A stretch of DNA of 64,000 bases, taken from an uncultured Gammaproteobacteria bacterium (GTDB taxonomy: Bacteria > Pseudomonadota > Gammaproteobacteria > SG8-11). A model generated the notes under the pieces. It had not been told where the DNA came from and did not search any database. It was given only the letters and a program-made list of their open reading frames with translations. Shown one piece after another: positions 34,791 to 57,621 of the stretch. The translations under genes were made by a program, and so were the position numbers. The stretch is from assembly GCA_964654485.1 (NCBI GenBank), contig CAZZJI010000004.1, forward strand, positions 1,104 to 65,103. Reading direction: 5' to 3'. Position 1 is the first letter of the stretch, and every line of letters begins with the position of its first letter.

Positions 34791-34804
34791 CAAGCACGTC
34801 TGAA

Positions 34805-35443: not shown

Positions 35444-36330
35444 ACCATTCCCTTGTGCGCAGAAGCGCTCAAATACGGTACGCCAAAATAGGTTGTAAAC
35501 GCCAAAATAAAAATGCCGATGATCATCGCACCACTCAGCCAGGCAGGAATTCGGTAAGTCAATCGCAAATGCAAGCCCAGCGCTAGCGCAAGCCAGGTAA
35601 GAAATGCCGATGTCTCCAACGGATCCCAGGACCAATAACGACCCCAGGCATCCTGCGCCCAAACCGCACCCGCGATCAACATCAAACTATCAAATACCAG
35701 CGCCAACATCATAAAACGCCAAGCAATCTTATCCAGAATTTCGTTTGCCGGCATACGTTCGAAATAAACCACAGTGCGTTTAAACTGTCGCAATATCATT
35801 ACACCGGAAAGCCCGACACCGAGTAACAGCAACGCTAGATACACCTTGCCCAGCAACACATGCGCCCATTTCCATTGATTGTAATATGTCGCTGGAAAAT
35901 GGCTCGCTTTTGGTTCAAGCAACAGCACCCAAGTTCCCAGTATCCATAAAATTGGCAGCGCAATGACTGCGCTGGCGCGCAGCCCCGGCAAACGCCAATA
36001 AGCAAGGGTAAAAATCACTCCCAAACTTAATAATTGACTCATGAGTAATTCAAATAAACTAATCCACGGGCCATGGCCAATACGCACCCACCGCATTGCG
36101 ATTGCAATCGTCAAAAATATTAATGCGCTAACTAAAAGAGCAAGTATCAACCTCTCATGTTGATTACCGCTCGTATTACTATTACCTGCTTCATTGATAC
36201 CCCCGATATTATTCATACCAATTTGGTGACGAGGCACCACACCCCAAATAGCAACAAACGTCGCCAACGCATACGCGGCCAACCCAGACCACAACCAGGG
36301 CAATTCTGCAACTATATCAGTGGAATTCAA
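35440..36330 (-). CDS. ccsA: System II cytochrome c biogenesis protein CcsA/ResC-like
   Basis: 296 aa polytopic membrane protein. It has the tryptophan-rich WAQDAWGRYWSWDPLET WWD domain and conserved His residues. Confidence 0.8.
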   Translation of the reverse strand: MNSTDIVAELPWLWSGLAAYALATFVAIWGVVPRHQIGMNNIGGINEAGNSNTSGNQHERLILALLVSALIFLTIAIAMRWVRIGHGPWISLFELLMSQLLSLGVIFTLAYWRLPGLRASAVIALPILWILGTWVLLLEPKASHFPATYYNQWKWAHVLLGKVYLALLLLGVGLSGVMILRQFKRTVVYFERMPANEILDKIAWRFMMLALVFDSLMLIAGAVWAQDAWGRYWSWDPLETSAFLTWLALALGLHLRLTYRIPAWLSGAMIIGIFILAFTTYFGVPYLSASAHKGMV

Positions 36331-37361
36331 ACAACATCTCCTTGCATCTTAGCCGCTGTAGATTTTTCTTTGGATTCTTCTTTGGAATGTTTAACACCGT
36401 CAGGCCATGGCCTGGACGCCATTTTTTCCCAGTAATGCCAACTAAGCCCAAATACACTAATTAAAGAAACAATAAACAACAATTGGATAGTCGGATTATA
36501 AAAAACTTTATAGCCCATCCAGGTGAGCAACTTGTCATATCGCAACTGACCACCGACGATCGGAATTGTATCACCTGGTTGCAACTCAATTCGCTGCTTA
36601 TTTTGTGAGACAACCAAAACACCCGATGAGTTCCTGCCATCCAGACGCCAAGCTTCATCCGCCGTCATACCGGTTTGTAATTGCAGCCAAAACTTTATTT
36701 CCTGATTATTTGGCGTTGTCCAGGTATTACCTTGTTTGTAATCAAATAACGGGTAAGAAGGCATATTAACCGTCCCCGTAACGGGTGACCCTTGTTCGGG
36801 AATCCAGGTTAGCAGCACGGAAAACCCCTTGTTAAATGTAGTGTAAAACCGAAACCCCTCGATGATCAGCGGCCGATCATCTCCAACAACTTTTTTTACC
36901 AGATTCCCCTGTTCATCAGGTATAAACACCTGACTAAAGGTCAACCCCCTGAGCATCCCTGCTCCATAATCCACAGTAAAGGGGCCTTGAATAAAATGCA
37001 CCTTCTCTAATGAGCCAGAGAACAGGGGACCCTTGAATTCTTCGGTTAGCTGACTCGGATCAAACGGTTGGGATTCCACTATTTCTATATGTGCATCCAG
37101 ATAAATCAAACGTCCTATTGCGGCAAGTACTACTATACCCAATAAGGCCAGATGAAAAGTCAGCAGGCCGGGCTGGGAATTAATGCGTGAATTAGAAAAA
37201 ATGGCTGCCAGCAGATTAATGGCTAACAAAGCCAGCGGAATTACAACCACCCAAACCACCGCACCCGGCTGATTGTCATAGGACAACGCAGCTCCAATGC
37301 CTAACAAAACAAAGCCTACCAAAGTAACTTTTAATGAGGCTATGGCCCTTATTATCTTCAT
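36327..37361 (-). CDS. ccsB: System II cytochrome c biogenesis protein ResB/CcsB-like (short form)
   Basis: 344 aa. It has an N-terminal TM helix, a periplasmic domain and a C-terminal TM helix. It is translationally coupled to ccsA by a 4-nt overlap. Confidence 0.65.
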   Translation of the reverse strand: MKIIRAIASLKVTLVGFVLLGIGAALSYDNQPGAVVWVVVIPLALLAINLLAAIFSNSRINSQPGLLTFHLALLGIVVLAAIGRLIYLDAHIEIVESQPFDPSQLTEEFKGPLFSGSLEKVHFIQGPFTVDYGAGMLRGLTFSQVFIPDEQGNLVKKVVGDDRPLIIEGFRFYTTFNKGFSVLLTWIPEQGSPVTGTVNMPSYPLFDYKQGNTWTTPNNQEIKFWLQLQTGMTADEAWRLDGRNSSGVLVVSQNKQRIELQPGDTIPIVGGQLRYDKLLTWMGYKVFYNPTIQLLFIVSLISVFGLSWHYWEKMASRPWPDGVKHSKEESKEKSTAAKMQGDVV

Positions 37362-40992: not shown

Positions 40993-41038
40993 ATGGGGGG
41001 TAATAAAAATGGGTGTAATAAAGATGGGTGTAATAAAA
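40993..41038 (+). repeat. 15-bp tandem repeat, 3 copies (atggg(g)gtaataaa(a/g)), overlapping the solute-binding-protein start. Each unit carries an ATG.
   Basis: Read directly. Unit 1 has an extra G, which puts it in a different frame (the 78-aa ORF 40993-41229). Units 2 and 3 give the N-terminus MGVIKMGVIK. Confidence 0.8.
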
Positions 41039-42094
41039 AGGGGAGTGGTAAAATTAAATGCAGTAAAACTGTGCTCGCATTTGCTTCATTCTTTTTTATT
41101 CTTGTTGTTCGGGATTTTCATCCCGTTAAACAGCGCATTTGCAAAAGAGCTGTTCGAAGTCTCGGTGGGTATATCACCTGTTATGAGTTCGTCGGCAATG
41201 TTTATTGCCAAAGAACGCGGTTATTTTGAAGAACAAGGAATCAAAGTAATTATCAACCCGTTTAAAGCCTCTGGCGCTAAAATGGTTCCTTTTCTGGCTA
41301 CCGGGCAACTAATGGTAGGCGGCGGAAATATCAGTGCTGGCATGTATAACGCGATTGCCAATGATATTCCAATAAAAATTGTGTCGGACAAAGGCACAGT
41401 AACGCCAGGTCATGGATATCTTGCGCTTATTGTTCGAGCCGATCACATCAAAAGCAGACGATACAGCGGGTTTGCTGATTTGAAAGGTATGACTATGGCC
41501 GTCACCGCAAAGGGTGTATCTCAGGAAATTGTCACAGAACGATTTTTGAAGAAAGCAGGGCTAACCCTCAAAGATATAAAATTGGTAACGCTCGCCTATT
41601 CTGATATCAACATAGCATTGGCAAACAAATCCATTGATGCCTCTATCCAGATTGAACCCTTTGTCGCAGCTGCTGTTGAAAACAATATCGCTATTCGGGT
41701 TGCCGGAAACGACCTGGTTTATCCGAACCAACAAAGCGCAGCGATTATGTATTCACCTGTGTTTATTGAAAAACACCCTGAACAAGCTAAAGCCTTCATG
41801 GTAGCTTATGTCAAGGGTCTACGCGATTACAACGATGCATTTGAAAAAAACATAGGAAAAGATACCGTCATCTCTATGCTGGCAAAAAGCACTCGAATAA
41901 AAAACCGCAAAATATATGAAAAAGTGGTACCTGTTGGCCTGGATCCGAATGGAAAAGTGAATATAGAAAGCCTTAGAAATGATGCACGCTGGTACTTTGA
42001 ACATGGTTATGTTAAAAAATTACCGGATATTGATTCCATTGTCGATCTAAGTTTTGCAGAATATGCGGTAAAGAAACTGGGCAGCTATAAATAA
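41009..42094 (+). CDS. ABC transporter periplasmic substrate-binding protein, NMT1/SsuA/TauA-like (nitrate/sulfonate/bicarbonate family)
   Basis: 361 aa with a signal peptide. The family assignment rests on the overall SsuA-like pattern and its position ahead of a matching ATPase and permease. Confidence 0.7.
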   Translation: MGVIKMGVIKRGVVKLNAVKLCSHLLHSFLFLLFGIFIPLNSAFAKELFEVSVGISPVMSSSAMFIAKERGYFEEQGIKVIINPFKASGAKMVPFLATGQLMVGGGNISAGMYNAIANDIPIKIVSDKGTVTPGHGYLALIVRADHIKSRRYSGFADLKGMTMAVTAKGVSQEIVTERFLKKAGLTLKDIKLVTLAYSDINIALANKSIDASIQIEPFVAAAVENNIAIRVAGNDLVYPNQQSAAIMYSPVFIEKHPEQAKAFMVAYVKGLRDYNDAFEKNIGKDTVISMLAKSTRIKNRKIYEKVVPVGLDPNGKVNIESLRNDARWYFEHGYVKKLPDIDSIVDLSFAEYAVKKLGSYK

Positions 42095-42170
42095 AACACG
42101 CGAAATCAAAAACAAGCCCCCCAATTTGCTAATATTTTGTACGTGAATCTCACAGGAAATTCAATATCAC

Positions 42171-42999
42171 AACTAACGCTATTATTGTTGCAGAAAATTT
42201 AAGCAAAGAATTCTGCAACAACGACAATAAAATAACCGCGTTCCAGGGTTTAAACTTTCAGGTTAATTCTGGTGAATTTCTTTGTTTGCTTGGTCCCAGT
42301 GGTTGCGGTAAATCCACCATTTTGAACACCATCTGCGGACTGGAATCTCCCACGACCGGAGATTTAATCATTGACGATGGTGGTAGCAATACAAAAACAA
42401 AAATAAGTATGGTGTTCCAGGAACACGGGCTATTCCCCTGGATGTCTTTAAAGGACAACATTGCATTTCCGTTAAAAAATGACACCTCTTTCGGGGATAA
42501 CTCTTTCCGTAAAAAAAGTTTCCGTAAAAAAAGTATCGAGCAACTTAGCATACAATTTTTAGAAAAAGTCGGCTTATTGAAATTCGCTAACTTTTTTCCG
42601 CACCAGGTTTCAGGCGGCATGCGGCAACGTATCAGTATCGCAAGAAGCTTTGCTGTTAATCCTGATATTTTATTGATGGACGAACCGTTTGTTTTTCTGG
42701 ATTATCAAAACAGACTGCTATTGCAAGAGTTATTATTGACACTTTGGCAAGACTCGAACAAGACCGTTCTATTTGTTACCCACAATATCAATGAAGCGGT
42801 ATCCCTGTCGGACCGTATTCTAGTAATGACCGCCCACCCCGGTTCAATGAAAGCAAATATAAAAATCAAATTATCTCGCCCCAGAGATATGTTTGAAATC
42901 AGAAAATCGACTGCATTCAGCAATTATGTAAATGACATTACTGATCTGATCAAGCATGAAATAATCGCATCACAGCAACAAACACAAATTGATATTTAA
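42171..42999 (+). CDS. ABC transporter ATP-binding protein (NitT/TauT family). The start is uncertain: the ORF-track TTG at 42286 sits directly on the Walker A motif. The homologous N-terminal strand is encoded upstream with no canonical start codon.
   Basis: The Walker A motif LLGPSGCGKST is at the ORF start. Upstream, the in-frame NAIIVAENLSKEFCNNDNKITAFQGLNFQVNSGEF is ABC-like. The signature is LSGGMRQR and the Walker B motif is LLMDEP. There is an in-frame 15-bp tandem duplication (SFRKKSFRKK). Confidence 0.7.
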
Positions 43000-43009
43000 A
43001 TGAGCAACA

Positions 43010-43753
43010 ATGAAAAGCAACGCAATTAAACTTATGTCCCCTGCTTTACTATTTCTCATTTGGGAAATATGCAGTCAAACCGGTTTAATAGATGTGCGTT
43101 TTTTCCCTCCCCCCAGCTCTATATTTTACCATTTAATTTTTATCAGCCCCGACGAGGGCATTATCACTGATATTTTTGCGACACTTAATCGTATCACTTG
43201 GGGCTATTTGTTTGGCTCTTTAGCGGGTATCGCATTAGGTGTCAGCATGGGGCTGTCCAAAACCACCAGAGCCTTCCTATACCCGCTAGTGGCAATGCTG
43301 TACCCCATTCCAAAAATCGCAATACTGCCCCTCATTATGCTAATTTTTGGCATTGGTGAAATGTCAAAAATTGTCGTAGTATTCATTGGTAGTTTTTTTT
43401 TAGTGCTATTGAATACACTTTATGGTGTAAGCAACTTGCAAAAAATCTATCATGATGTCTCATATGTGTACCGTATAAAAAAAACCAATTTTATTTTTCA
43501 CGTAGTGCTACCCGGTGCGCTGCCTGCGATTTTCACAGGATTAAAGCTGGCTATTGGCTATAGCCTTGTTATCGTCGTTGCAGCAGAATTTTCCGGTGCT
43601 GATGCTGGAATAGGTTATCTGATATGGCAATCCTGGGAAACATTTTCTATAAAAGCAATGTATGCAGGAATATTTGTGATAGGCACATTAGGGTTTATAT
43701 TTGCTCATACCTTAGAATATATCGAACGAAAACTTATTCCCTGGAAACAATAA
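43010..43753 (+). CDS. ABC transporter permease (SsuC/TauC-like)
   Basis: 247 aa with six TM helices. It has an EAA-like loop region. Confidence 0.75.
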   Translation: MKSNAIKLMSPALLFLIWEICSQTGLIDVRFFPPPSSIFYHLIFISPDEGIITDIFATLNRITWGYLFGSLAGIALGVSMGLSKTTRAFLYPLVAMLYPIPKIAILPLIMLIFGIGEMSKIVVVFIGSFFLVLLNTLYGVSNLQKIYHDVSYVYRIKKTNFIFHVVLPGALPAIFTGLKLAIGYSLVIVVAAEFSGADAGIGYLIWQSWETFSIKAMYAGIFVIGTLGFIFAHTLEYIERKLIPWKQ

Positions 43754-43835: not shown

Positions 43836-44951
43836 ATGGTTAGAACAGGAACGAGTACTACTAAACAACAAATGATTATAAAACACGCATCACACCGCCT
43901 TTTTTTGTCGCAAATATTACTCATATTATTGTTAATAGTCGGGTTCTTTTTGAGCTTCGGCAGCGTAATTGCCGAAGATGCCGCCGCTACCAATGATAAA
44001 AAGACACTCGTAGATACCCACCATAAGCGCTCTCGACAATGCTTCGAATGCCATTTGGATGTTGAAAGTCCGGCGTTCAAAACAATCTTGAAAAATAATT
44101 GTATTGAATGCCATAAATCCGGCTGGGTGAAGGGAAAGCTGGAGCAATTAGCTAAAGAACCCGACATGTCCAATTCGTTAGCCACTGAAAAAGCCAGTGG
44201 ACAGGGTCCTGGTATGAACGTGCCGATGTACTATGAAAATAGCAAACTTGGCGATAAACTCAACGAATTAATATTGATTCCTGCGGGTGATTTTATTCGC
44301 GGGACAAATAATAGGCTACCCGATGAAGGGCCTCAGCATGTCGTGAATGTGAAGGCATTTTATATCGACAAATACGAAGTAACCAATCTTCAATACAAAA
44401 AATTTCTGGATTCAACGGGACATATACCACCTAGTTTATTTATCCAAGGAATGCCCCCAAAAGGCAAAGTAGACCACCCAGTCGTTTATGTTTCCTGGTT
44501 TGATGCTAAAAAATATTGTGGCTGGGCTGGCAAGCGCTTACCTGATGATAAGGAGTGGGAAAAAGCCGCACGTGGTACCGATGGGCGCAGTTACCCCTGG
44601 GGTGACGAATTCAGTATTGAACGTGTCAACTCACCTGTTAGATGGTCAAATTTGAATCTGATCGGTGATACAACGCCCGCAGGGGCCTTTGATGGCGGGG
44701 TAAGTCCATACGGGCTACACGACACGTCAGGTAACGTATGGGAATGGACCTCTTCCCGCTATGAAGCCTATCCTGGCAATAAGCGAAAATCTGAAAATTA
44801 CGGTGGTAATTATCGCACACTTAAAGGCGGTTCATGGTGGGATTGTTCTTTTTATCAATGTGGTATCTCCGCACCACTGTATAATCGCAGCTTCTTTCAT
44901 CCAAAAACAAAAAATAACAGTTTTGGTTTTCGTTGTGCAAAAGATGGATAA
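43836..44951 (+). CDS. Fusion of an N-terminal diheme c-type cytochrome module with a formylglycine-generating-enzyme (FGE-sulfatase/SUMF1/PvdO/NirV-like) domain
   Basis: 371 aa with a signal/TM segment. The heme motifs are CFECH and CIECH. The FGE domain follows (IPAGDFIRG...YEVTNLQY...GNVWEWTSS...GGSW... and C-terminal FGFRCA). Confidence 0.8.
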   Translation: MVRTGTSTTKQQMIIKHASHRLFLSQILLILLLIVGFFLSFGSVIAEDAAATNDKKTLVDTHHKRSRQCFECHLDVESPAFKTILKNNCIECHKSGWVKGKLEQLAKEPDMSNSLATEKASGQGPGMNVPMYYENSKLGDKLNELILIPAGDFIRGTNNRLPDEGPQHVVNVKAFYIDKYEVTNLQYKKFLDSTGHIPPSLFIQGMPPKGKVDHPVVYVSWFDAKKYCGWAGKRLPDDKEWEKAARGTDGRSYPWGDEFSIERVNSPVRWSNLNLIGDTTPAGAFDGGVSPYGLHDTSGNVWEWTSSRYEAYPGNKRKSENYGGNYRTLKGGSWWDCSFYQCGISAPLYNRSFFHPKTKNNSFGFRCAKDG

Positions 44952-45006
44952 CATTGTTTCATAACACCAAATTACAAAAATCAAACCCCAAACACCAAGG
45001 GAAATT

Positions 45007-45891
45007 ATGAGAAAACAATTTTTTGAGCCTATTTTTCCTATTTTTCTTAGTGCGTGTTTAACCCTTGCCGCATGCAGCAAGGATGATGGCTCGCAACAAA
45101 AAAATTCCTCGCCTACGGCGTCACAACTTACGTTACAAACAAAACAAACTGCGCCAACGATAACCGGCATGGTCTACATCCCAGCAGGGGAATTTGTAAT
45201 GGGCAGTAATGATGTTGATGCAAGTGGTAAATCCGAAGAATTCGGGTTTAACGAACCCTGGTATTTGAACGAACATCCACAACACACGGTTTTTCTGGAT
45301 GCATTTTATATTGATAAAAATGAAGTCACCAATGGGAATTATAAATCTTTTCTGCTGTTAACTGGTCAATACAATACAGAGCAAATAAACGATATCCTGA
45401 AAAAATTTAACCTGGCAGAAAGCAAAGAACCTTTGAGGAACGTCAATTGGCACGATGCTAGCAGCTTCTGCAAAATAATAGGAAAGCGATTGCCTACTGA
45501 GGCAGAGTGGGAAAAAGCAGCACGTGGACCTGATGGACTGGAATTTCCCTGGGGCAATGAATGGAAGCCTGACTACCTAAATGCCGGCGGTGAAGAAATT
45601 GATGTGATGCCAGTAGGGTCATATGAAAAAGGCAAATCTCCTTACGGCGTATACGATATGGCAGGCAACCTAATGGAATGGGTTGAAGACTGGTACCAAG
45701 CATACCCTGGCGCGGATTATAAAAGCCCGCGCTATGGCAAACAACGAAAAGTGGCTCGTGGCGGTAGTTGGGGTGGCATCGGCCATTACGTGATACCTCA
45801 TTATTTCCGTACGGCGTATCGATATAATTATCCTGCGGACAAGGCTTTTAATGATATCGGGTTTCGTTGTGCAAAGGATGTATCTAAATAA
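45007..45891 (+). CDS. FGE-sulfatase (SUMF1-like) domain lipoprotein
   Basis: 294 aa. The lipobox is LAACSKD. The FGE signature is MVYIPAGEFVMGS...NEVTNGNY...GNLMEWVED...RGGSW...IGFRCA. Confidence 0.8.
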   Translation: MRKQFFEPIFPIFLSACLTLAACSKDDGSQQKNSSPTASQLTLQTKQTAPTITGMVYIPAGEFVMGSNDVDASGKSEEFGFNEPWYLNEHPQHTVFLDAFYIDKNEVTNGNYKSFLLLTGQYNTEQINDILKKFNLAESKEPLRNVNWHDASSFCKIIGKRLPTEAEWEKAARGPDGLEFPWGNEWKPDYLNAGGEEIDVMPVGSYEKGKSPYGVYDMAGNLMEWVEDWYQAYPGADYKSPRYGKQRKVARGGSWGGIGHYVIPHYFRTAYRYNYPADKAFNDIGFRCAKDVSK

Positions 45892-45897
45892 ATTCGT

Positions 45898-46728
45898 ATG
45901 CCCCTATTAGCTTTTTTTTTCTACTTTTTATTCAGTGCCTCTGCCCTGGCAAAAGAAAACAATACCACTATAGAAATTAATTATTTCACAGACAAATTGA
46001 CTGATGGCACTGATGGCCCTGAAATGGTTTGGATACCCGCGGGTAATTTTACGATGGGCGACATACAAGGCGTTGGATTGGATGATGAAGTGCCGCCTCA
46101 TAAAATAAATATTAAAAAACGTTTTGCTCTTGGAAAATACCCGATCACATTTTTAGAATATGATTTGTTTTGTGAAAAAACAAACCGTACTAAAGCATAT
46201 GATCATGGCTGGGGAAGAGGCAAGCGGCCTGTTATTCATATTAACTGGTTAGATGCGATAGCCTATACTGAGTGGTTAAGCCAGCAAACAGGAAAAAAGT
46301 ATCGCTTACCAACGGAAGCGGAATGGGAATATGCAGCCCGGGCTGGATCGAAAACGAACTACTGGTGGGGAAACAAAATGCTGCCAGGCATGGCATATTG
46401 TTTTAAATGCGGTGACACAATAGAAAAAAACCAAACAATTACTGTAGGCCGCTTTCCAGCTAACTCATTTGGACTATATGATGTCGTCGGCAACGTTTGG
46501 GAATGGACGGCGTCAAAATGGACTCAAACGTATTTTGGAGAAGAATTAAAACAAATTAACAACAATGAAGTTGTAATTGCTGCTAACCATCTAGAAGCAG
46601 CACAACTCGCCATGCGCGGGGGCGCCTGGAACCTCCAGGAAAAATTTAACCGTTCTTCATCTCGGTATTATGGCGCACCGAAGGCGCGTAACATGAACTT
46701 AGGTTTTAGAATTGCCCGATCGGAATAA
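45898..46728 (+). CDS. FGE-sulfatase (SUMF1-like) domain protein, secreted
   Basis: 276 aa with a signal peptide. The signature is MVWIPAGNFTMGD...GNVWEWTAS...RGGAW...LGFRIA. Confidence 0.8.
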   Translation: MPLLAFFFYFLFSASALAKENNTTIEINYFTDKLTDGTDGPEMVWIPAGNFTMGDIQGVGLDDEVPPHKINIKKRFALGKYPITFLEYDLFCEKTNRTKAYDHGWGRGKRPVIHINWLDAIAYTEWLSQQTGKKYRLPTEAEWEYAARAGSKTNYWWGNKMLPGMAYCFKCGDTIEKNQTITVGRFPANSFGLYDVVGNVWEWTASKWTQTYFGEELKQINNNEVVIAANHLEAAQLAMRGGAWNLQEKFNRSSSRYYGAPKARNMNLGFRIARSE

Positions 46729-46770
46729 AATTACTCGGCGTAGAAAACAAACCCTACGAAGACAGTAAAT

Positions 46771-47700
46771 TTATTTTGTTCTTGCCACACGAAACCCGAC
46801 TGTACTCCACGCTTCGTGCGGCAGTATTACGCCTCTATTTGCAGATCGCATATCTACAATAAAATTATACCAGGAACCACCGCGGATAACCCTTACGCCT
46901 TCATCAAGCCCTTTATTTGAACTAACCAGCTCACTACCGTCATAGAACCCCACATAGTCTGACGCGACCCACTCCCAAACATTTCCGCTAACATCATATA
47001 ACCCGAATGGGTTCGCTAAATAGCTGCCCACAGGCACGGTCTCAACTGTACGCCAATGCGCAAAAAAAAACCGACACCTGGCTTGTTGGCAATCGCCGCT
47101 GTTACCGTTACCCCACCAGTAGCTCGTTTCAGTGCCACCACGAGCGGCATACTCCCATTCCGCTTCCGTTGGCAAACGGTATTGCTTTTCTGTTTGCTGA
47201 CTTAACCAATTGATATATGCAATTGCATCACCCCAGGACACACAAACAACCGGGTGATTATCCTTCTGCCGAAAAAGAGGATTATACCATGCGGCTTCTT
47301 TTTGCTCATGCCACACGACTTTGCGTGCAATGCAACCATCGTTCAACTCGGCTCTTGTTCGATAACCGGTTTTTTCCACAAACAATCGAAATTCTGCCAC
47401 CGTCGTTTCATATTTCGCTAACGCAAAGGGCTGTGACATTTTCACCGAGCGAATAGGCTCTTCATCGCCATCTGTCTGGTCGCTACTAATGTTCCCCATA
47501 CGAAAAATACCTGATGGTATCCACACCATTTCAGGCCCCTGCAGCCCTATATTTAACTTATCTCTAAATACAGAACCGGTATCCGCATCCCAAACAATTT
47601 TTACTGTCGTGCAGGCCGTATTTAACGAGAAAAAGACACATAATTGGAGAATTAAATAACATTTATTGAATAAATTTCCAAGCGTGAATATCTTCTCCAT
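46771..47700 (-). CDS. FGE-sulfatase (SUMF1-like) domain protein, secreted. It is the last gene of the long minus-strand array.
   Basis: 309 aa. The signature is MVWIPSGIFRMGN...GNVWEWVAS...RGGSW...VGFRVA. Confidence 0.8.
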   Translation of the reverse strand: MEKIFTLGNLFNKCYLILQLCVFFSLNTACTTVKIVWDADTGSVFRDKLNIGLQGPEMVWIPSGIFRMGNISSDQTDGDEEPIRSVKMSQPFALAKYETTVAEFRLFVEKTGYRTRAELNDGCIARKVVWHEQKEAAWYNPLFRQKDNHPVVCVSWGDAIAYINWLSQQTEKQYRLPTEAEWEYAARGGTETSYWWGNGNSGDCQQARCRFFFAHWRTVETVPVGSYLANPFGLYDVSGNVWEWVASDYVGFYDGSELVSSNKGLDEGVRVIRGGSWYNFIVDMRSANRGVILPHEAWSTVGFRVARTK

Positions 47701-47763: not shown

Positions 47764-49173
47764 TCAGGACGCATGAGCCAACTCAGGAAACGGCAAATAC
47801 TTTTTATTAAAAAACTGCATTGCCACTTCATCCGCAAAAAATCGACCACGTGGTGTCAAGAAAACTTTTTCATCATCTTCACCCAGCAAGCCCAATTTTT
47901 TCAGGCGAGCAATTGTGTCGCCAAAAAACGCTTCCACGGTCTCGCCTGTAGCCCGGTTAAATGATTGTTTATGTACAAAACTGTTTTTCAACGGCAAAAT
48001 AAATCGTCTGCGTATCTCATCATCGTGCGTTCTGACCATCCCGCGATTAACAGATACCTTACCCTCATCCACAAGCTGATAATAATTTTCTAAGTTATCA
48101 TCACCCACATTGAGCGAAAACACACCGCGCAGGTTCGACCAGGAAGAAACACCGACTCCTATTACATCGGAAAGATGGCAACATGAATCGCGCAAATAAT
48201 GCGATATATCTTTTTCCTTTTTGGCAAAAATTCGCGTTTGCCGCTCGTCAAATCCATTATCTCTTGAAATAATCAGGCCTAACATTTTCATAACATAGAT
48301 ATCATCAACTTGCGGAAATGTATTCGCTTTTTTATTATAAACTTTTAATATATTCCCCGGCCTGTCACCATGCGGTTTAATACGCAATCGATATAATTGA
48401 TAACCCTCAATATCCAAAGTAACAGCTTCTTGCATTGTCTCAACCCACTGCAGCAAATTTTGCTCAGGGTAACCATAGATAAGATCAATGAATATATTGT
48501 CGATACCCGCTTTACGAATCTGCTCTATGGCCTTCAACGTATCCGCATGAGTGTGAACGCGCCCCATGCGCGCCAATATTGAGTCATCAAATGATTGCAC
48601 ACCCATACTCAATCTATTTACACCGTAATCCTTCATTATTTTTAATTTTTCCAGACCATCTTCACCCAGTATTGTTGTTGGCTCCGGCTCCAGAGAAAAC
48701 TGGGTACAATTGGTTAAATCAAAATGAGTGGTAAATGCTTTTAAAAATCTCTCCATTTGTTTAGCAGATAAATAGGAGGGTGTACCACCGCCTATCAGTA
48801 CTGCATCCACCGGAATTTGCTCCATACCCAATTTTGAGCGGTATAAACCCATCTCTTTCTCCAAGTGGTCAAGATAATTATCCACTTCCTCCGGGCGACT
48901 TTTGGTTTTTGTAATCCAGTGGCAAAAAGTACAACGTGACGGACAAAACGGTATATGCACATAGGCAATCATAGGATTAGCGGGGCGTTCATTTATCTCG
49001 GCAAGAATTGGTTTTTCATCCATTTGCGGATACATTGTCAACGGCGGATAGCCGATAACAGGAAAAAATTTCCCGTCTGTAGGCAGAATGCCAGATGTTT
49101 TTACCTTATCAAGGCCCAGTTCACCCAATTCCATCTTAGCTTTTTCAATCCAGTTTTGTACATCCATAATCAA
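47764..49173 (-). CDS. Radical SAM enzyme of the HemN-like family (oxygen-independent coproporphyrinogen oxidase/HemW/ChuW-like)
   Basis: 469 aa. It has the CPSRCTFC radical SAM cysteine triad inside YVHIPFCPSRCTFCHW, the GGGTPS motif, and a HemN-like C-terminal domain. It lies 20 nt downstream of the double-propeller gene. Confidence 0.75.
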   Translation of the reverse strand: MIMDVQNWIEKAKMELGELGLDKVKTSGILPTDGKFFPVIGYPPLTMYPQMDEKPILAEINERPANPMIAYVHIPFCPSRCTFCHWITKTKSRPEEVDNYLDHLEKEMGLYRSKLGMEQIPVDAVLIGGGTPSYLSAKQMERFLKAFTTHFDLTNCTQFSLEPEPTTILGEDGLEKLKIMKDYGVNRLSMGVQSFDDSILARMGRVHTHADTLKAIEQIRKAGIDNIFIDLIYGYPEQNLLQWVETMQEAVTLDIEGYQLYRLRIKPHGDRPGNILKVYNKKANTFPQVDDIYVMKMLGLIISRDNGFDERQTRIFAKKEKDISHYLRDSCCHLSDVIGVGVSSWSNLRGVFSLNVGDDNLENYYQLVDEGKVSVNRGMVRTHDDEIRRRFILPLKNSFVHKQSFNRATGETVEAFFGDTIARLKKLGLLGEDDEKVFLTPRGRFFADEVAMQFFNKKYLPFPELAHAS

Positions 49174-49192: not shown

Positions 49193-51310
49193 TTATTGCT
49201 TAATTTCGGACGTCATCACCAATGCGACTGGTTTCGGCCCGGTATTTATTTCACCCACACGCTGCAAGTCACCATTTACTTTATTTAATCTAAAAATCAT
49301 AATGTTTCTTGAACCTTCATTTATGACATAGACATAATCCCCTGCAGGGCCAATAACAATATCGACCGGATCTTTACCCACAATCACTTTTTTAGAATTC
49401 TTTTTTATCAACCCAGTGGTAGTATCTACCTGATAAATAGAGACAGAACCAGATCCTTTATTTACCACGTAAATAAAGGATCCATCATGCGTTAGAGCGA
49501 TAGACACCGGTTCTTTTTCTGTCATCGTCGACCCTTCCAAGCTACGTAAACCTCCAGACTGAACATGTATTTCATAAGCCGTCAGTGTATTTGATTCTGC
49601 AGAAACAACATATGCGTACCGTCCATTGGGGTCAATCGCCATCGCATTAGCTCCATTTTTTATTTCGACAGGTGAACCAAACTCACTTGCAATCACCAAA
49701 GGTCCATCGTCATAATAATTAAAAAATGAAATATCGTTTGTTAGCGCATTTATAATATACGAATTACGCGCAGACGGATGTAATAATAACTTACTAGGTT
49801 GGCGTTCTAGTTTATATGGGGACGCGTAATACAGCCCGGTTTGTTTTAGCTCCGTTAAAGAACCGTTAGTCGCATCTATTTCAAAAACAGACATCGTGTT
49901 CGATTTAGAATTTAATGTGTAGACATATCTCCCATTGTAATCAACTGCAATTGAGTGGGGCTGTTCGCCAGTTCGATATGGCGAACCAGCAATTTCCTTT
50001 AATTTGCCGTCACGTCGGTTAATCATAAAAGCGGAGATGGTGTTTGATTTTAAATTGGCTACATATAAAAATCGATTTAGTGGATCCAGAGCAAGGGATT
50101 CCGGTGCCAAACCAGTTTTTGCTTTGGCAATTGACTTAAGCGCCCCTGTTTTATTATTAACTTTATATACACTAACCGAATCTGAATCAAAATCGGCCAG
50201 GTAAGCAAAACGTGAGGAAAATTCTACTGGCTTATCACCCATAACAAATGCAATTGACCGGGGACCAGAACGTGCCATTGTGGTCTCACCGATAGACAAT
50301 ACACCCGTTTGCTGGTTCACGGAATAAACCGTGACATGATTACTATCATAATTTGTAACAAAGGCAAAATTCCCGCCCGACTCTACTTCTACTTGAACAT
50401 TCAGACTTCCTACATTGACAAACGGTGAACCGGGGATAGGCATTAACTCACCCGTGAGCATATCGATGGAGAAACCATATGTGCCGCCAAACCAGTTTGC
50501 AACATAGAGAAATTTCCCATTCGGATGAATGGTTAAACCAAAGGGGAATACCCCCTCGCCCAATGGCAAAATATGTTTTTCCAGCAAAGCGCCACTGTCA
50601 TTGTTTATTTCAAATACGATAATTTCCCTACTATTCCAACTGCTCACAAAGGCATACTTACCCGCAGAATGTACTTTTATATACTGCGGTGCGTCTCCTG
50701 CGATAAAGGGTGAACCAGGTATATTGCTCAGTTCACCCGTTGTGCTATTCACGCGATACCCAGACACAGTGTCATCGTTGATATTCGTCATATACACGAA
50801 TCGGTCAGAGGGATGAACCGCAACAGAACGCGGTAAATACCCGCCGGGATAAGGTGACCCCTTAACTAAACTTAATGCACCGGTCTGAGAATCAATTTCC
50901 ATTACAGCAACAGCGTTGGAATTTCTACCCGCGATATATAAATATTCCCCATCTTTGTCTAATGCTGACCAAAAAGGAGAAACCACTTGCGGATCAAAAG
51001 GCGAACCCGGGAGTTCTATCAATCTCCCGGTTGAATGATTAACGCTAAACGCAGAAACTTTCATTCCAGTCTGCTCAGTAACGTAAACAAAACGACCACT
51101 AGGGTGGGCAACAACAGATGAAGGAAATCTGCCGGTGTCCACATGACCATTGTGACGTAACCGACCGGTAACACTGTCTACTGTGTACATCGAAACAGTA
51201 CTGTCATAGGCGTTTACGACATAAGCAAATTTAGGCACCACTGCATTAGCGAGCTGATATTCAAACAACACCGACAGCAAAACAATACTAGATAAACTTG
51301 ATAATCGCAT
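49193..51310 (-). CDS. Secreted tandem (double) 7-bladed beta-propeller of the lactonase / YVTN-like family
   Basis: 705 aa with a signal peptide. It has about 14 repeats of the .Y(V/I).N..S..VSV(F/Y)..(D/N)..TG.L type (YVVNAYDSTVSMYTVDSVTGRL, LYIAGRNSNAVAVMEIDSQTGAL, LYVANLKSNTISAFMINRRDGKL and others). Confidence 0.7.
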   Translation of the reverse strand: MRLSSLSSIVLLSVLFEYQLANAVVPKFAYVVNAYDSTVSMYTVDSVTGRLRHNGHVDTGRFPSSVVAHPSGRFVYVTEQTGMKVSAFSVNHSTGRLIELPGSPFDPQVVSPFWSALDKDGEYLYIAGRNSNAVAVMEIDSQTGALSLVKGSPYPGGYLPRSVAVHPSDRFVYMTNINDDTVSGYRVNSTTGELSNIPGSPFIAGDAPQYIKVHSAGKYAFVSSWNSREIIVFEINNDSGALLEKHILPLGEGVFPFGLTIHPNGKFLYVANWFGGTYGFSIDMLTGELMPIPGSPFVNVGSLNVQVEVESGGNFAFVTNYDSNHVTVYSVNQQTGVLSIGETTMARSGPRSIAFVMGDKPVEFSSRFAYLADFDSDSVSVYKVNNKTGALKSIAKAKTGLAPESLALDPLNRFLYVANLKSNTISAFMINRRDGKLKEIAGSPYRTGEQPHSIAVDYNGRYVYTLNSKSNTMSVFEIDATNGSLTELKQTGLYYASPYKLERQPSKLLLHPSARNSYIINALTNDISFFNYYDDGPLVIASEFGSPVEIKNGANAMAIDPNGRYAYVVSAESNTLTAYEIHVQSGGLRSLEGSTMTEKEPVSIALTHDGSFIYVVNKGSGSVSIYQVDTTTGLIKKNSKKVIVGKDPVDIVIGPAGDYVYVINEGSRNIMIFRLNKVNGDLQRVGEINTGPKPVALVMTSEIKQ

Positions 51311-51466: not shown

Positions 51467-54265
51467 TTACGGCACATTAGTACACGCCTCACTACTCATC
51501 GCCATCCAAAACACACCCGTAGCCCCGTTACCTGGCGCTCCGACTGAACCACAATTGGCTACCGTCCAGTTACCACTGAGTGCAAAACTAGTGACCTTTA
51601 ATACAGCTCTATTATAATAGGGACCATTAAAATACCCTGCTCTACCATCACCTGCGGGACCATTTCGAACCTGGACGCCCGATCTGTTAAATCCACCTTC
51701 AAATCCAACGTCATTTAGATTGACAAGAAAAGCCTTGTTTTTCCAACCATGCGGGACTGCAATATGACATAAATTACAGCGAAAGTTTGACACAGCATTC
51801 GCATGAAAAGTATGTAAATTCTGCGTATTCGGCATACACATCATTCCACCGCCACCACCGCTCATACGACCGCCGCCCATGCCGCCGCCGCCCATGCCAC
51901 CGCCGCCCATCATACACATACCACCACCACCACCCAGTGAAAACCCACTATTTTGAGGAAAAGCCGGTGACGGATTGCCGTATTGATTATATCGATGGCA
52001 TTTAAAACATAAATGCGTTGGCTGGCCGATACCGGTTCCGGTTGTGCGTCCACCACTCCACGGACCTTTTAACAGAAAATCATTCTCTGAACCATGCGGT
52101 CCCCAGACACGTCCATCATCACCTGCACCACCACCGCCGGTATTGCCCGTTGGAACTGATGTGCCGTTGTTGGTATCAGAACCATGGCAATCCGTGCAAT
52201 ACATGGTTTGCACACCCACAGCCAGATTAAACGGTGAGGTCCAATTGAGTTGGTTTGCATCACGAATCGCAGGTGTTCTGCCGGTGGACCTAACAACCGG
52301 ATGCCAACTACGATGATTGTTTATAGCAAATGCAGCGCCAGCGCCACTGTTAGGGGCGGTGCCTTCACCCTGATGTTCGACAGGAGAATTATATTCGCTC
52401 GCCTGATTGGTGTACTGCGTCATTTCGTTAGTACCAGATGGGGTACCACCGACAAATGAACCCAACATCGGCGGTGTATTGCCATACGCATAATTTGAGT
52501 GACACTTAAAACAAACCTGGTACTCGCGTGTTACGTAAGGGCTGGAGGTACCATCGTCACCGGGTGGCGCATCAATCGGTGGGCTGCCTCTTTTAATCGC
52601 GAAAGTAATCTGCGCATTAGGAACAGCATTAAAATTGGGGCCTGCGTAAATGGGTTCGACGCCCCATATACCCCTTAAAACACCGGAAGCGACATTAGTA
52701 TGCATTCTAACACCTCCAACAACTGCAAGGTCCGCGTCATTATGCGGGTGTGTGCCCGCTGGACCGGGATTAGCTGGGTCAGCGTTAAATAAACGATTTT
52801 TGATCACGCGGTGCGGATTATGGCAATCGGTACATTCGGCATGTCGATTAGCCAAACGCGTTTGGCTCTCGATAAAATCTTTACCGGCCTGCGGGATGCC
52901 GGGTGCATCACCTATATTGTGAACCTCTTCTGGACTATTCACCCCGAGAGACTGGTCGTCGGTGGTAATCGGCATGCGTGTTGCCAATGTAGTAAAGTCA
53001 GTTTTAATATCCGGCACTTCTGTACCAAGACCTTGGGCGGTTAATGTATTACCATCTGATGAGTGACAGGCGTAACAAGTTTGTTCAATCGCAGGTCGGC
53101 CACCCTGTTTAACCAGGTAACCACCAACAGAAACAGTAGGTCCATCTGTGCCTTCGCGCGTCAGACGTCGTGCACCCTGTACAGTGTGAGTATCATGGCA
53201 TGCAAGACAAGCCGATTCCCATGTTCGTGTACCCAATGGGAATTCTCGTACATTGGCCGCCGCATCCGTGTATATCTCATCAGCGACATCAGGATTAGCA
53301 TGTGCAGAATCAACCCAACCTGCTTTGAGGTGACAGGCAATACAGATAATATCGGCGTTAGTTCCGACGGGTGTACCTGGATTAAACCCAACATCCGCAG
53401 GTCGAGTCGATTGCAATCGGCTCAAACGTAAAAACTTAATATTCTGCTCTAATGTATCATCTCGAATATGCGGATCATGGCAGGTATTACATTGAACCTG
53501 CCCTTGCCCACCAGAATCATCCTGTAGAGGAACGATAGGCGCTGGTTGCCCACGAACCCGGGTACCAAGATGTGACTCTACTGCCGGGTCACGCATTTCA
53601 CCGTCTGCTGCCGCGAGCGCACTATCATACGTCATCGAAATGGGGTGATCATTTGTCAAATCAGTGCCAAGAAAACGAGTAAAACCAGAAAGCCGCCCAC
53701 TGGGGCCTTCAGCGATGGCACCACCCGCAATGGTGCCCGTCATCGCTATATCCTCTGTGGTACCGATTCGATCAGTAAAACGACCTTCAAATACATTGAC
53801 CGCGCCCACAGCCATTGTGCCATCATGGCACGACAGACACAGTTTCGAGATACCTGTCGGTTGTTGTAATGGCTGGCCCGGGCCAATCGCCGAATCCAGC
53901 GATCCTGAACTATAGGTAGGATACTGCGCACCAGATAATTCGCGGTTCCACAATGGACCCTCACTTACCGTGCCACCATGCGGGGCATGGCAAAAAACAC
54001 AAATTTGATTTTCTGTTACTGCCGAGACAACTCGACTTGCCCCCCCAGGCAGTTTTGGAGCAAAATCCGCAGAAAAATTATGTTTGGTATTGGAAATGTC
54101 AGAGATTCGCGCTGCGTGCGCATCAATTGAAAAAGTGGGTACGATACAAATAGCCGCCGTATAGACTAAAATCGCAGTTAATAAAACCGGGAAATATCCA
54201 TTGAAATAAGCATTTAGCTTGGCGCCGCCATAGGAAGAACGACTAAAAATCTTGCACACCCTCAT
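51467..54265 (-). CDS. Giant 11-heme c-type cytochrome (doubled-CXXCH family N-terminus) with a Met/Gly-rich insert
   Basis: 932 aa with an N-terminal TM/signal segment and 11 CXXCH motifs (CVFCH, CLSCH, CNTCH, CIACH, CLACH, CYACH, CTDCH x2, CFKCH x2, CNLCH). The N-terminus shares the HNF...C.FCH.PH / LCLSCHDGT module with the pentaheme paralogs. The insert is GGGGGMCMMGGGGMGGGGMGGGRMSGGGGGMMCM. Confidence 0.85.
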   Translation of the reverse strand: MRVCKIFSRSSYGGAKLNAYFNGYFPVLLTAILVYTAAICIVPTFSIDAHAARISDISNTKHNFSADFAPKLPGGASRVVSAVTENQICVFCHAPHGGTVSEGPLWNRELSGAQYPTYSSGSLDSAIGPGQPLQQPTGISKLCLSCHDGTMAVGAVNVFEGRFTDRIGTTEDIAMTGTIAGGAIAEGPSGRLSGFTRFLGTDLTNDHPISMTYDSALAAADGEMRDPAVESHLGTRVRGQPAPIVPLQDDSGGQGQVQCNTCHDPHIRDDTLEQNIKFLRLSRLQSTRPADVGFNPGTPVGTNADIICIACHLKAGWVDSAHANPDVADEIYTDAAANVREFPLGTRTWESACLACHDTHTVQGARRLTREGTDGPTVSVGGYLVKQGGRPAIEQTCYACHSSDGNTLTAQGLGTEVPDIKTDFTTLATRMPITTDDQSLGVNSPEEVHNIGDAPGIPQAGKDFIESQTRLANRHAECTDCHNPHRVIKNRLFNADPANPGPAGTHPHNDADLAVVGGVRMHTNVASGVLRGIWGVEPIYAGPNFNAVPNAQITFAIKRGSPPIDAPPGDDGTSSPYVTREYQVCFKCHSNYAYGNTPPMLGSFVGGTPSGTNEMTQYTNQASEYNSPVEHQGEGTAPNSGAGAAFAINNHRSWHPVVRSTGRTPAIRDANQLNWTSPFNLAVGVQTMYCTDCHGSDTNNGTSVPTGNTGGGGAGDDGRVWGPHGSENDFLLKGPWSGGRTTGTGIGQPTHLCFKCHRYNQYGNPSPAFPQNSGFSLGGGGGMCMMGGGGMGGGGMGGGRMSGGGGGMMCMPNTQNLHTFHANAVSNFRCNLCHIAVPHGWKNKAFLVNLNDVGFEGGFNRSGVQVRNGPAGDGRAGYFNGPYYNRAVLKVTSFALSGNWTVANCGSVGAPGNGATGVFWMAMSSEACTNVP
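51836..51934. repeat. Imperfect 15-bp tandem repeat (catgccgccgccgcc-type units) that encodes the Met/Gly-rich insert of the 11-heme cytochrome
   Basis: Read directly on the plus strand: ...catacgaccgccgcccatgccgccgccgcccatgccaccgccgcccatcat... Confidence 0.75.
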
Positions 54266-54446
54266 TGCACCCTCTGACTATTTTTTTCGTGTTCGGCCTT
54301 AAATTGAGTAATTACTCATCTCATGAGCTACTCCAACCAAATAAATGCTTATTAATTTTTATAATTATTATTTAAGCTTATTATTATAAATTGATAGTTT
54401 TCTGTTATTTTTATGAGGCTTATCAAGCCTGATTAATTCTGTTTTT

Positions 54447-54505
54447 AGAAACCCATCATTTGAAACCTACTTTACTTTAGAAACCTATCATTTGAAACCT
54501 ACTTA
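54447..54505. promoter_or_regulatory. Two 27-nt direct repeats (agaaacc(c/t)atcatttgaaacctactt) with 32-bp spacing upstream of the 11-heme cytochrome gene; candidate regulator binding sites
   Basis: Copies lie at 54447-54473 and 54479-54505 with 1 mismatch. The tactttag tails are also repeated. They sit 180-260 bp upstream of the start at 54265, in an AT-rich intergenic region. Confidence 0.45.
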
Positions 54506-54556
54506 ACTCACTTTACTTTAGAAACTTAGCACTAGAATGCAATAAATAACCAGGCG

Positions 54557-55654
54557 TCATCCTGGATTATTCAAATATTGTAAAACCACAATACGTCCGT
54601 TGAACATATCTGCAACATAAATACGGTCTTGGGAATCAGACCACACACCTGCTGGCAGGTAAAATTGGCCTATACCCGAACCTGTTCCACCAACCGGAAG
54701 CAGAAATTCTCCCGAATTATTATATACTAGCAAATAATCATAGTAGGATTCTACAACGTAAATAAGGCCTTGATCATCGACCGAAATTCCCTTTGGTCGC
54801 AGCAAATCCCCTATATTTAAGCTACGTTTACCAAATTTACTAACAAAATCCCCGTCCTTATCAAAAATTTGGATCCGCGCATTCATAGAATCAGTCACAT
54901 ACAGTTGCCCCTTATAATAACTGATAAAAGTAGGGAAATTAAACTCACCGGAGCGAACGCCGCGCTGCCCGATGACACTGAGCAGTTCACCGGAATCATC
55001 AAATATCTTTATATTGTGGGCGTGGGTATCTGAGACATAGATACGACCAAATCGCGCGTCTCGAGCCAGACCCGTCGGCCGTTTAAGAAGCCCTCTACCG
55101 AATTGTCCTAACGGTATTCCGTTGCTATCCAACCTAACGACGACGCCTAGTTCAGCATCCGCAACATAAACCTCACCGTCTTTGCCTGGTACGATGCCGA
55201 TTGGCGCAAGAAAATTGCTGCCATCTTCTGAATCAGCCTTTTCCCAGATATTCAACTCGCCCAGTTTATCATCAAATACAAATACGGCCTGCCGACTAAT
55301 GTCTGTTACATAAATACGTTTGCGCTTTTCATCAACAAAACCAGTTTGCGGCCGTTGTAAAACAACTTTTTGAGACGGCTGTGAATCTATGCCAACAAAC
55401 CACTTTACAAACCGCATAAAGACACCGTCCTCTTCGGGCTTTTTATAAAAATTATTTTCCCCGGTCAACTGCCCTATATATTTATAGCGCGGCATTTCCG
55501 GTTCGGACGGCCATACCTTGGAATCATCAACTCGATAACGTAATTCACCCCGTGTATCCGCACAACTGGAGAGAAAAACTGTAAAAACAAGAAAAATGAG
55601 TAGCGAGGAAATTCGTTTATTTAACATTATTCTTGTCACAAATAGTTTATACAA
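54557..55654 (-). CDS. NHL-repeat six-bladed beta-propeller lipoprotein
   Basis: 365 aa. The lipobox is LSSCADT. The blades are IYVTDISRQAVFVFD, VYVADAELGVVVRLD, IYVSDTHAHNIKIFD, LYVTDSMNARIQIFD, IYVVESYYDYLLVYN and IYVADMFNGRIVVLQ. Confidence 0.85.
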   Translation of the reverse strand: MYKLFVTRIMLNKRISSLLIFLVFTVFLSSCADTRGELRYRVDDSKVWPSEPEMPRYKYIGQLTGENNFYKKPEEDGVFMRFVKWFVGIDSQPSQKVVLQRPQTGFVDEKRKRIYVTDISRQAVFVFDDKLGELNIWEKADSEDGSNFLAPIGIVPGKDGEVYVADAELGVVVRLDSNGIPLGQFGRGLLKRPTGLARDARFGRIYVSDTHAHNIKIFDDSGELLSVIGQRGVRSGEFNFPTFISYYKGQLYVTDSMNARIQIFDKDGDFVSKFGKRSLNIGDLLRPKGISVDDQGLIYVVESYYDYLLVYNNSGEFLLPVGGTGSGIGQFYLPAGVWSDSQDRIYVADMFNGRIVVLQYLNNPG

Positions 55655-55705
55655 AGCGTTTTTGTAAAAGTTGTAATATCAAATCCATAACAAGATAAAC
55701 GAGCG

Positions 55706-56824: not shown

Positions 56825-56829
56825 TATCC

Positions 56830-56870
56830 TGGTTAGCGAAGACCTACGCCTGATTAGCGAAGACCTACGC
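56830..56870. repeat. 20-bp tandem duplication (ttagcgaagacctacgc x2) covering the stop codon of the triheme cytochrome gene and the 5' UTR of the NHL gene
   Basis: Read directly as ggttagcgaagacctacgcctgattagcgaagacctacgctttcg. The second copy contains the TAA stop of the 56854-57495 gene. Confidence 0.8.
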
Positions 56871-57495: not shown

Positions 57496-57621
57496 CTTAT
57501 ATTATATACCTTTTTCTAATTATCAGCATCCAATCAACGCTTATGTCGAAAAAACGCAAAAAATCCAGTTTTGCCATGGAAAGATTTTTTAGATCCCGCC
57601 CTTGACTTTCCCCGATAGGAA

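Follow-up and report, generated by a model that had tools for sequence, protein, structure and literature searches.

The 64-kb window analysed here, the whole of the stretch of which positions 43,836 to 47,700 are shown above, comes from an uncultured gammaproteobacterium and encodes four adjacent proteins with the fold of formylglycine-generating enzyme (FGE), one of them fused to a dihaem cytochrome module. The locus raises the question of what such proteins do in a region where no sulfatase gene is found. A sequence-only reading of the same DNA had treated the four paralogs as one functional set within a cytochrome machine and had remarked on a neighbouring HemN-like radical SAM gene. We find that the conserved unit is smaller: it consists of the dihaem protein, P1, and the product of the gene directly downstream, P2, and three of the four paralogs, P2 among them, lack the catalytic cysteines.

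In a Pfam scan of every window open reading frame (ORF) of at least 150 aa, four matches to PF03781 (FGE-sulfatase; cut-off 23.3 bits) stand side by side where the sequence-only reading had placed them, each far above the cut-off:

43836..44951, plus strand: P1, 371 aa; PF03781 196.6 bits, E 7.5e-58
45007..45891, plus strand: P2, 294 aa; PF03781 178.7 bits, E 2.2e-52
45898..46728, plus strand: P3, 276 aa; PF03781 181.1 bits, E 3.9e-53
46771..47700, minus strand: P4, 309 aa; PF03781 207.4 bits, E 3.8e-61

The genes of P1 to P3 converge on that of P4. Judged by eye from the sequence, all four proteins begin with a hydrophobic signal, an anchor or a lipobox-like N-terminus.

The claim that the 64 kb hold no sulfatase is borne out. 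PF00884 is unmatched by any ORF in the scan, and PROSITE pattern PS00523 has zero matches in the six-frame translation of the window and zero in 1021 ORFs around 62 related loci (887 kb). P1 and P2 probably do not act on sulfatases, and P1 in addition lacks the segment that binds the CxPxR motif (below), in keeping with the earlier view that these are not ordinary sulfatase activators.

The P1–P2 pair

P1 starts with a hydrophobic helix, followed by two c-type haem motifs and, at residues 143–369, a domain of FGE fold; it is predicted to be periplasmic or membrane-anchored. The CFECH and CIECH motifs that the sequence-only reading had seen ahead of one FGE domain belong to this protein:

44040..44114, plus strand: haem-binding motifs CFECH (C69–H73) and CIECH (C89–H93) of P1, invariant in the alignment
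44832..44876, plus strand: catalytic-loop signature GGSWWDCSFYQCGISAP of P1 with Cys337 and Cys342, the pair being present in 119/120 homologues

In a 51-sequence alignment of the family, residues C69, C72, H73, C89, C92, and H93 are invariant. A His-His at residues 61–62, mostly conserved among homologues, may supply the distal haem ligands. Pfam gives the haem domain only a weak match, to Cytochrom_c3_2 (E 0.0026, below cut-off). An AlphaFold model built from the same alignment has a mean predicted local distance difference test score (pLDDT) of 73.7, with a helix at residues 11–41, and Foldseek places it in the FGE fold; that search could not tell FGE from ToxD, CalU17 or EgtB. The FGE-like proteins of the window do not belong to the EgtB, OvoA or SenA families. 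The best scores are 106 bits for EgtB (cut-off 360) and 104 bits for SenA (cut-off 420), the alignment is confined to the C-terminal half, and DinB_2 is unmatched.

A protein search with P1 returns more than 100 full-length homologues of 314–451 aa at 52–76% identity, including Tel_00080 of Candidatus (Ca.) Tenderia electrophaga. Exactly two CxxCH motifs are present in 120/120 listed homologues (52–100% identity), and the loop GGSWWDCS[F]Y.CG[I]SAP with its cysteine pair is kept in 119/120. We also searched a library of 1.84 billion cluster representatives (50% identity) with the FGE domain of P1; 154,338 match at E <=0.001. Giant multi-domain proteins with several FGE domains dominate the list, which yields no informative nearest non-fused relative. 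A DC..Y.CG[IL]S[AS]P loop occurs in 11 of the best 150 representatives; seven of the 11 carry two CxxCH, one carries one, and three short proteins (231–300 aa) carry none. Since most loop carriers among these 150 bear CxxCH and 119/120 homologues bear both features, the cysteine loop and the haem module travel together. On this basis, the earlier suggestion that the oxidase domain has an electron route of its own in the fused haems is plausible; electron transfer itself is inferred.

Where the homologues of P1 are named at all, they are annotated as generic FGE-family or hypothetical proteins. The blindness of Pfam to the haem module may explain these annotations. A gene identical to that of P1 is found on contig VAPK010360875 (28.7 kb) of GCA_006243085.1 and on Logan assemblies of SRR6439370 and SRR6439371; the high number of that contig hints at a large assembly of a metagenome-like or host-associated kind.

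A scan limited to one genome per species gives 63 P1 loci, all from metagenome-assembled genomes (MAGs). The hosts are assigned to Gammaproteobacteria, Gallionella/Gallionellaceae, Nitrosomonadales, Burkholderiales, Chromatiales/Chromatiaceae, and Thiotrichaceae, and several MAGs carry two or three dispersed copies. These groups are mostly aerobic or microaerophilic chemolithotrophs, which fits an O2-dependent enzyme.

P2 has a lipobox, LAAC, at its N-terminus (by eye) and is predicted to be a lipoprotein. When aligned to S. coelicolor FGE, it has Gly and Pro at the two catalytic Cys positions, and 55 residues of that enzyme (chain 88–143) are opposed by 17 residues. The same holds across the family: a loop Cys is present in 0/50 members, the Trp of the O2 pocket is replaced by Met, Ser or Ala in 41/50, and the pocket Ser is retained in 8/50. 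Other positions are nearly fixed, namely a G-H-Y motif (49/50) and cysteines at the positions of human C218 (50/50) and C365 (49/50).

P2 is the obligate downstream partner of P1. In gene maps, a P1-like gene with two haem motifs and the Cys pair is followed by a same-strand P2-like gene in 51 pairs from 46 loci. A tblastn re-check, which removed ORF-calling artefacts and took in the 58 P1-like genes that have 900 bp or more of sequence behind them, finds a P2-like gene directly after 57 of them; the sole exception is a P1-P1-P2 arrangement. The intergenic distance is 2–55 bp across loci and 2 bp in Ca. Tenderia. There, both genes are transcribed at a similar level (log counts per million 8.0 and 7.5), with no response to electrode potential.

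Little else is shared around the pair. Clustering of 1021 ORFs from 63 loci, together with five context look-ups, leaves the FGE family (137 genes in 63 loci) as the sole widely shared family near P1, and every other neighbour family occurs in at most 11/63 loci. The recurring ones look like housekeeping genes by eye (YjbQ-like, DEAD-box helicase, ankyrin lipoprotein, isocitrate dehydrogenase, AspRS, SlyD-like). One further recurrent "family" was rejected as an antisense ORF artefact of the P2 gene.

Tandem P1-P2-P1-P2 arrangements occur at five loci (L005, L006, L016, L018, and L019), where the pair is duplicated as a unit. Together with the dispersed P1 copies and a triplication of P4 described below, this suggests that these FGE-fold genes have expanded more than once.

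Catalytic loop and substrate groove of P1

The sequence-only reading had proposed alignment to human FGE as a check on the catalytic cysteines. Alignments show a cysteine pair in the loop of P1 and in none of P2, P3, and P4. Counting every paralog as an FGE would therefore exaggerate catalytic capacity, since P2, P3, and P4 cannot be FGEs. Invariant residues in the P1 family alignment are G331, G332, S333, W334, D336, C337, S338, Y340, C342, G343, S345, and P347.

Human numbering below is the chain index of PDB 1y1e plus 72, as checked from the alignments. In a first alignment, P1 'kggswwdCsfyqCgis' lies against human FGE 'kggsym-ChrsyCyr', with C337 on C336 and C342 on C341. The profile of 51 P1-family members sets C337 on human C341 and C342 on human C346, and MAFFT puts both loop cysteines of P1 one position ahead of human C336 and C341. 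Human C218 and C365 correspond to C228 and C367 of P1; P2 likewise has Cys at both positions, and P3 and P4 have other residues at both. At the position of human C235, P1 has Ala. The disulfides of human FGE are 218–365 and 235–346. C228 and C367 would fill the structural disulfide, which would leave C337 and C342 free to bind metal or to cycle their redox state. Judged from these alignments, C337 and C342 lie in the catalytic loop, at catalytic spacing and without a structural partner.

In T. curvata FGE, the copper ligands are Cys269 and Cys274, the O2 pocket contains Ser266 and Trp228, and the substrate is contacted by Trp84, Phe86, Met99, Ala101, Trp108/109, Tyr273, Arg276, and Ser290 (PMC6676471). 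The equivalents of the two pocket residues in P1, Ser333 and Trp302, are invariant across 51 sequences. The substrate contacts fare differently. Residues 149–201 of human FGE (53 aa) are opposed by just 12 residues in P1, and the missing segment holds the equivalents of Trp84, Phe86, Met99, Ala101, and Trp108/109, including human Phe156/158 (Trp84/Phe86 in T. curvata) and Trp179/180 (Trp108/109). At the Arg276 position the P1 family has Ile, and at the Ser290 position Thr or Lys. The segment is specific to FGE and pFGE: a query with human residues 141–238 aligns exactly on human FGE, near-gapless on T. curvata FGE (chain 73–168), S. coelicolor FGE, and pFGE, partially on CalU17 and hardly at all on EgtB. 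With the groove segment lost, the target of P1 is probably not a classical sulfatase, and P1 is not a canonical sulfatase-directed FGE. The chemistry may be FGE-like despite this loss.

P1 resembles FGE (SUMF1; human, S. coelicolor, T. curvata) in its fold, with ~30% domain identity, in a CxxxxC in the catalytic loop whose register against the human pair varies with the alignment, in the Ser and Trp of the O2 pocket and in the C218–C365-type disulfide. It differs in the absent 149–201 groove, a loop longer by 2 residues, the replaced Arg276 and Ser290 equivalents, the added dihaem N-terminal module, the constant presence of a partner gene and the lack of a sulfatase nearby. P2, in turn, resembles pFGE/SUMF2 as an FGE fold without catalytic cysteines encoded alongside a Cys-bearing paralog, and the loop length is common to P1, P2, and pFGE. 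However, pFGE keeps the substrate-groove segment that P2 lacks, and P2 is a predicted lipoprotein with the G-H-Y motif; P2 does not belong to pFGE/SUMF2, and its binding to P1 is a prediction.

Candidate functions of the pair

Tentatively, we prefer to read P1 as an FGE-like thiol oxidase of the periplasm that uses copper and O2 and is fed by its haems, with P2 as a catalytically dead partner and with a target other than a sulfatase. P1 would be exported to the periplasm, where two c-type haems, probably bis-His and low-potential, would stand ahead of the FGE-fold domain. The cysteine pair would bind Cu(I), a substrate thiol would join the Cu(I) site, and O2 would be activated as in FGE. The cytochromes of the periplasm would then provide the two extra electrons by way of the fused haems, in place of the thiol reductant used for FGE in vitro. 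P2 probably pairs with P1 as a non-catalytic subunit, for substrate binding or as a scaffold. Cytochrome-fused copper nitrite reductase, in which a tethered haem domain feeds electrons to a copper site in one polypeptide, would be a functional analogy for P1; fold and chemistry are unrelated.

A more specific form of this proposal is possible and, in our view, rather doubtful: P1–P2 would be a cytochrome-c-driven copper-thiolate oxidase derived from FGE, which installs formylglycine or another Cys modification on non-sulfatase periplasmic targets, with P2 for recognition, in iron- and sulfur-oxidising chemolithoautotrophs.

Several points weigh against the haem-fed oxidase. The three alignments give three registers for the P1 Cys pair relative to human C336/C341. 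The model leaves both this register and the distance from haem to active site unsettled, as the loop at residues 335–353 has pLDDT <50. The CxxxxC of a periplasmic protein could be a mere structural disulfide. The haem domain scores above threshold for no curated cytochrome family in Pfam. In addition, the neighbour clustering over 63 loci gave no conserved candidate substrate gene near P1–P2.

A structural disulfide at the Cys pair is part of a first alternative, in which the paralogs are non-enzymatic FGE-fold binding modules comparable to PorK/GldK, GldJ or Tsi3 immunity proteins. The haems would then have a role in ordinary electron transfer in the periplasm or in sensing. Non-catalytic roles of FGE folds are documented (bioRxiv 10.1101/2021.05.21.445229), and PorK structures are among the structure matches. 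The superfamily is also huge and mostly non-FGE, as the number of matching cluster representatives given above illustrates, and the catalytic residues are missing in three of the four paralogs. However, Asp336, Ser333, and Trp302 show strict invariance, as does the Cys pair; the loop with this pair occurs together with the haem motifs, and the conserved structural disulfide is already supplied by the other two cysteines of P1. We regard this alternative as unlikely.

Copper handling in the style of NirV, in place of substrate modification, is a second alternative. The bis-cysteine site would bind Cu(I), and P1–P2 would be a periplasmic chaperone or a redox-gated store that serves cbb3 oxidase, for instance, or another cuproenzyme, with the haems setting the oxidation state. 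Coordination of Cu(I) in FGE resembles that of copper-trafficking proteins. The loss of the peptide groove from P1 and the lack of a conserved substrate gene near the pair agree with such a role, as does the tight binding of Cu(I) by the two cysteines of FGE (KD ~1e-17 M; PMC5324649). The invariant Ser and Trp of the O2 pocket would be needless in a chaperone, however, and no gene for a copper enzyme, CopA, Sco or PCuAC recurs beside the pair. NirV itself is an FGE-family protein tied to a periplasmic redox or copper system, its gene lying next to nirK; the comparison is one of gene context only, and in that respect P1–P2 differs, with no nirK or cupredoxin gene beside it in the window or the related loci. 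The Pfam scan finds no nirK-like or multicopper-oxidase ORF in the window, and none is among the recurrent neighbours of P1. We consider a copper chaperone or store distinctly unlikely.

In a third alternative, P1 is a genuine periplasmic FGE for Cys-type sulfatases or other enzymes of the alkaline-phosphatase superfamily encoded elsewhere; the haems replace the thiol reductant, and P2 takes the role of pFGE/SUMF2. A Cys-bearing and a Cys-less paralog side by side recall SUMF1 and SUMF2. The Cys pair, Ser333, and Trp302 are conserved in P1, and the best matches among solved structures are pFGE and FGE (E 1e-28 to 1e-41). Against this stand the 53-residue CxPxR-groove segment missing from P1, the replaced Arg276 and Ser290 equivalents, the absence of a sulfatase signature from the window and from the 887 kb of related loci, and the loss from P2 also of the segment that pFGE keeps. 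We consider a genuine FGE quite improbable here.

If the haem-fed oxidase is the correct reading, P1–P2 would show how electrons are supplied in vivo to an FGE-type centre. For FGE, an unusual mononuclear Cu(I) oxidase, the physiological electron donor is unsettled, and fusion to two c-type haems would suggest an answer. Groove loss and an obligate dead partner would imply that periplasmic FGE-type chemistry acts on a new class of substrate, and the self-contained chemistry would be of use for mechanistic study and for aldehyde-tag biotechnology. The module is widespread and so far unstudied, being annotated only as hypothetical or generic FGE-family proteins; in the literature searched, we found no description of FGE–cytochrome fusions or of these genes in Tenderia or Gallionellaceae.

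P3, P4, and the surrounding genes

Neither P3 nor P4 has the loop Cys pair in the alignment. By eye, P3 has a Sec-type signal ending in ALA, and P4 has a lipoprotein-like N-terminus and is a probable lipoprotein. The nearest named NCBIfam model for both is PvdO, a dihydropyoverdine dehydrogenase, which resembles them as a periplasmic Cys-less FGE fold. Their scores of 135 bits (P3) and 162 bits (P4) against a cut-off of 500 indicate that they are not PvdO; identity with PvdO (NF051459) was rejected on this ground, and no pyoverdine genes are present among the window ORFs.

The gene order P2-P3 is confined to close relatives of the window (L008, L009, L013, and L015). The full order P1-P2-P3-P4 is found only in L008, with 88% identity to P1, and L009, and part of it in L013 and L015. 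In L009 and L015, one to three P4 copies stand beside a propeller gene, P4 being triplicated in L009 (6755–9679). A metagenome scan with P4 gives only relatives at 38–50% identity. Elsewhere, sequences related to P3 and P4 mostly form the C-terminal domains of 350–1300-aa proteins, with no homologues of the window's cytochromes or propellers near them. P3 and P4 are generic cysteine-less FGE-fold proteins, P3 of a PvdO-like type, added in one marine gammaproteobacterial lineage. The four-gene cluster is a lineage-specific accretion and not a functional unit.

P4 is the last gene of a minus-strand run with Uet-like genes, a propeller gene, and the HemN-like gene, which are co-directional with intergenic gaps of 19–156 bp. 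Promoter matches around the cluster are below the shuffled-sequence level, and terminator matches are within it. Two flanking features belong to the context of the cluster:

47764..49173, minus strand: HemN/HemW-like radical SAM protein (Radical_SAM and HemN_C), outside the conserved module
41009..43753, plus strand: SsuA-like substrate-binding protein, ABC ATPase, and permease (NMT1, ABC_tran, BPD_transp_1), upstream of P1

The HemN-like gene adjoins the cluster, as the sequence-only reading had noted, on the same strand as P4 and 63 bp from the P4 start. Its best NCBIfam models all score below cut-off (STM4012, 210/380 bits; HemW, 191.6/205.4), as do the HutW and HemN models. A link to anaerobic formylglycine chemistry had been raised for this gene. 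The protein is HemN/HemW-like, with Radical_SAM and HemN_C as its only domains and no SPASM/twitch domain among the Pfam matches, and its identity with an anaerobic sulfatase-maturing enzyme was rejected.

The proposed co-occurrence with cytochromes can be judged from neighbour counts over the 62 related loci (887 kb). A HemN-like gene lies near P1 in 1/62 loci, a 705-aa double propeller in 2/62, a cytochrome with at least three haems in only 4/62, and ResB/CcsA-like genes in 2–3/62; an ABC permease is next to P1 in 4/62, all close relatives of the window. The loci with such neighbours are close relatives of the window except L029 and L063, each with one ORF of 3–4 haems, and synteny in close relatives can be put down to shared ancestry. 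A functional tie of P1–P4 to the HemN-like gene and the Uet-like cytochrome cluster is not supported.

The remaining alternative, built on the sequence-only reading, takes the four paralogs and the HemN-like enzyme as maturation or modification factors for a Uet-like multihaem cytochrome machine. P4, the HemN-like gene, the double propeller, and a multihaem cytochrome are contiguous on one strand in the window and L009, and L015 has that run without the HemN-like gene. P1 stands beside ResB/CcsA-like cytochrome maturation genes in L010–L012, and several host groups (Tenderia, Gallionellaceae) are described as users of extracellular electron uptake. Against it stand the neighbour counts given above and, in Ca. 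Tenderia, the long distance between the pair and the uet cluster and the absence of regulation of the pair by electrode potential; moreover, neither an FGE nor a radical SAM gene is listed in the published uet cluster. This is the least supported rival and very improbable. The P1–P2 pair of Ca. Tenderia adjoins mutY and yggX.

The minus-strand genes at 51467–63987 resemble the Uet extracellular electron uptake cluster of Tenderiales and some Gallionella, and fit the description of uetB-J for Tenderiales:

63187-63987, minus strand: PPIase (peptidyl-prolyl isomerase), part of the Uet-like cluster
within 51467-63987, minus strand: two trihaem c7-type cytochromes, two NHL propellers, and a 932-aa cytochrome (11 CxxCH)
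within 51467-63987, minus strand: 629-aa and 522-aa proteins with no Pfam/NCBIfam match, possibly a porin and a lipoprotein

Neither the cupredoxin UetF nor the tetrahaem UetA was identified in the window's Uet-like cluster. In Tenderia, uetJ is directly followed by ccsA, ccsB, and a tetratricopeptide repeat (TPR) gene. In the window, ~14 kb separate the Uet-like genes from the ccsA/ccsB counterparts and hold the propeller, the HemN-like gene, P4 to P1, the ABC transporter, EamA, a methyltransferase, and an unknown gene.

The 705-aa protein (49193-51310, minus strand) consists of two 7-bladed lactonase-type propellers; its gene separates that of the undecahaem cytochrome from the HemN-like gene. 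In L009 and L015, homologues stand beside the P4 copies and a cytochrome. It matches the propeller models of hydrazine-synthase beta and L-NosZ weakly, far below their cut-offs.

Upstream of P1, the substrate-binding protein scores 110.7 bits against SsuA_fam (cut-off 163.5). For the ABC ATPase (42095-42999, plus strand), the listed ORF opens with TTG at 42286, and the Walker A motif stands right at its beginning. About 60 codons upstream of this TTG are open in frame and encode an ATPase-like N-terminus, but contain no ATG, GTG or TTG, which suggests a non-canonical start or a decayed gene. A tandem duplication, SFRKK SFRKK, is also seen in the ATPase.

At 26565-37361 (minus strand), two systems for cytochrome c maturation adjoin each other. 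System I is present as a full set of CcmA, B, C, E, F, a thioredoxin-like protein, and CcmH/I; System II is a ResB-like/CcsA-like pair with TPR and redoxin genes. In the close relatives L010–L012, the System II pair directly adjoins P1.

At 18247-21723 (plus strand), pentahaem cytochromes of 270 and 352 aa (5 CxxCH each) flank a 370-aa NHL six-bladed propeller. At 22080-26122 (minus strand), between these cytochrome genes and the Ccm operon, are genes for a 463-aa Kelch-repeat protein and two 388–430-aa proteins with 'two-component regulator propeller' repeats. The window thus has an unusual density of beta-propeller proteins, of the Kelch, two-component regulator propeller, NHL, and lactonase types.

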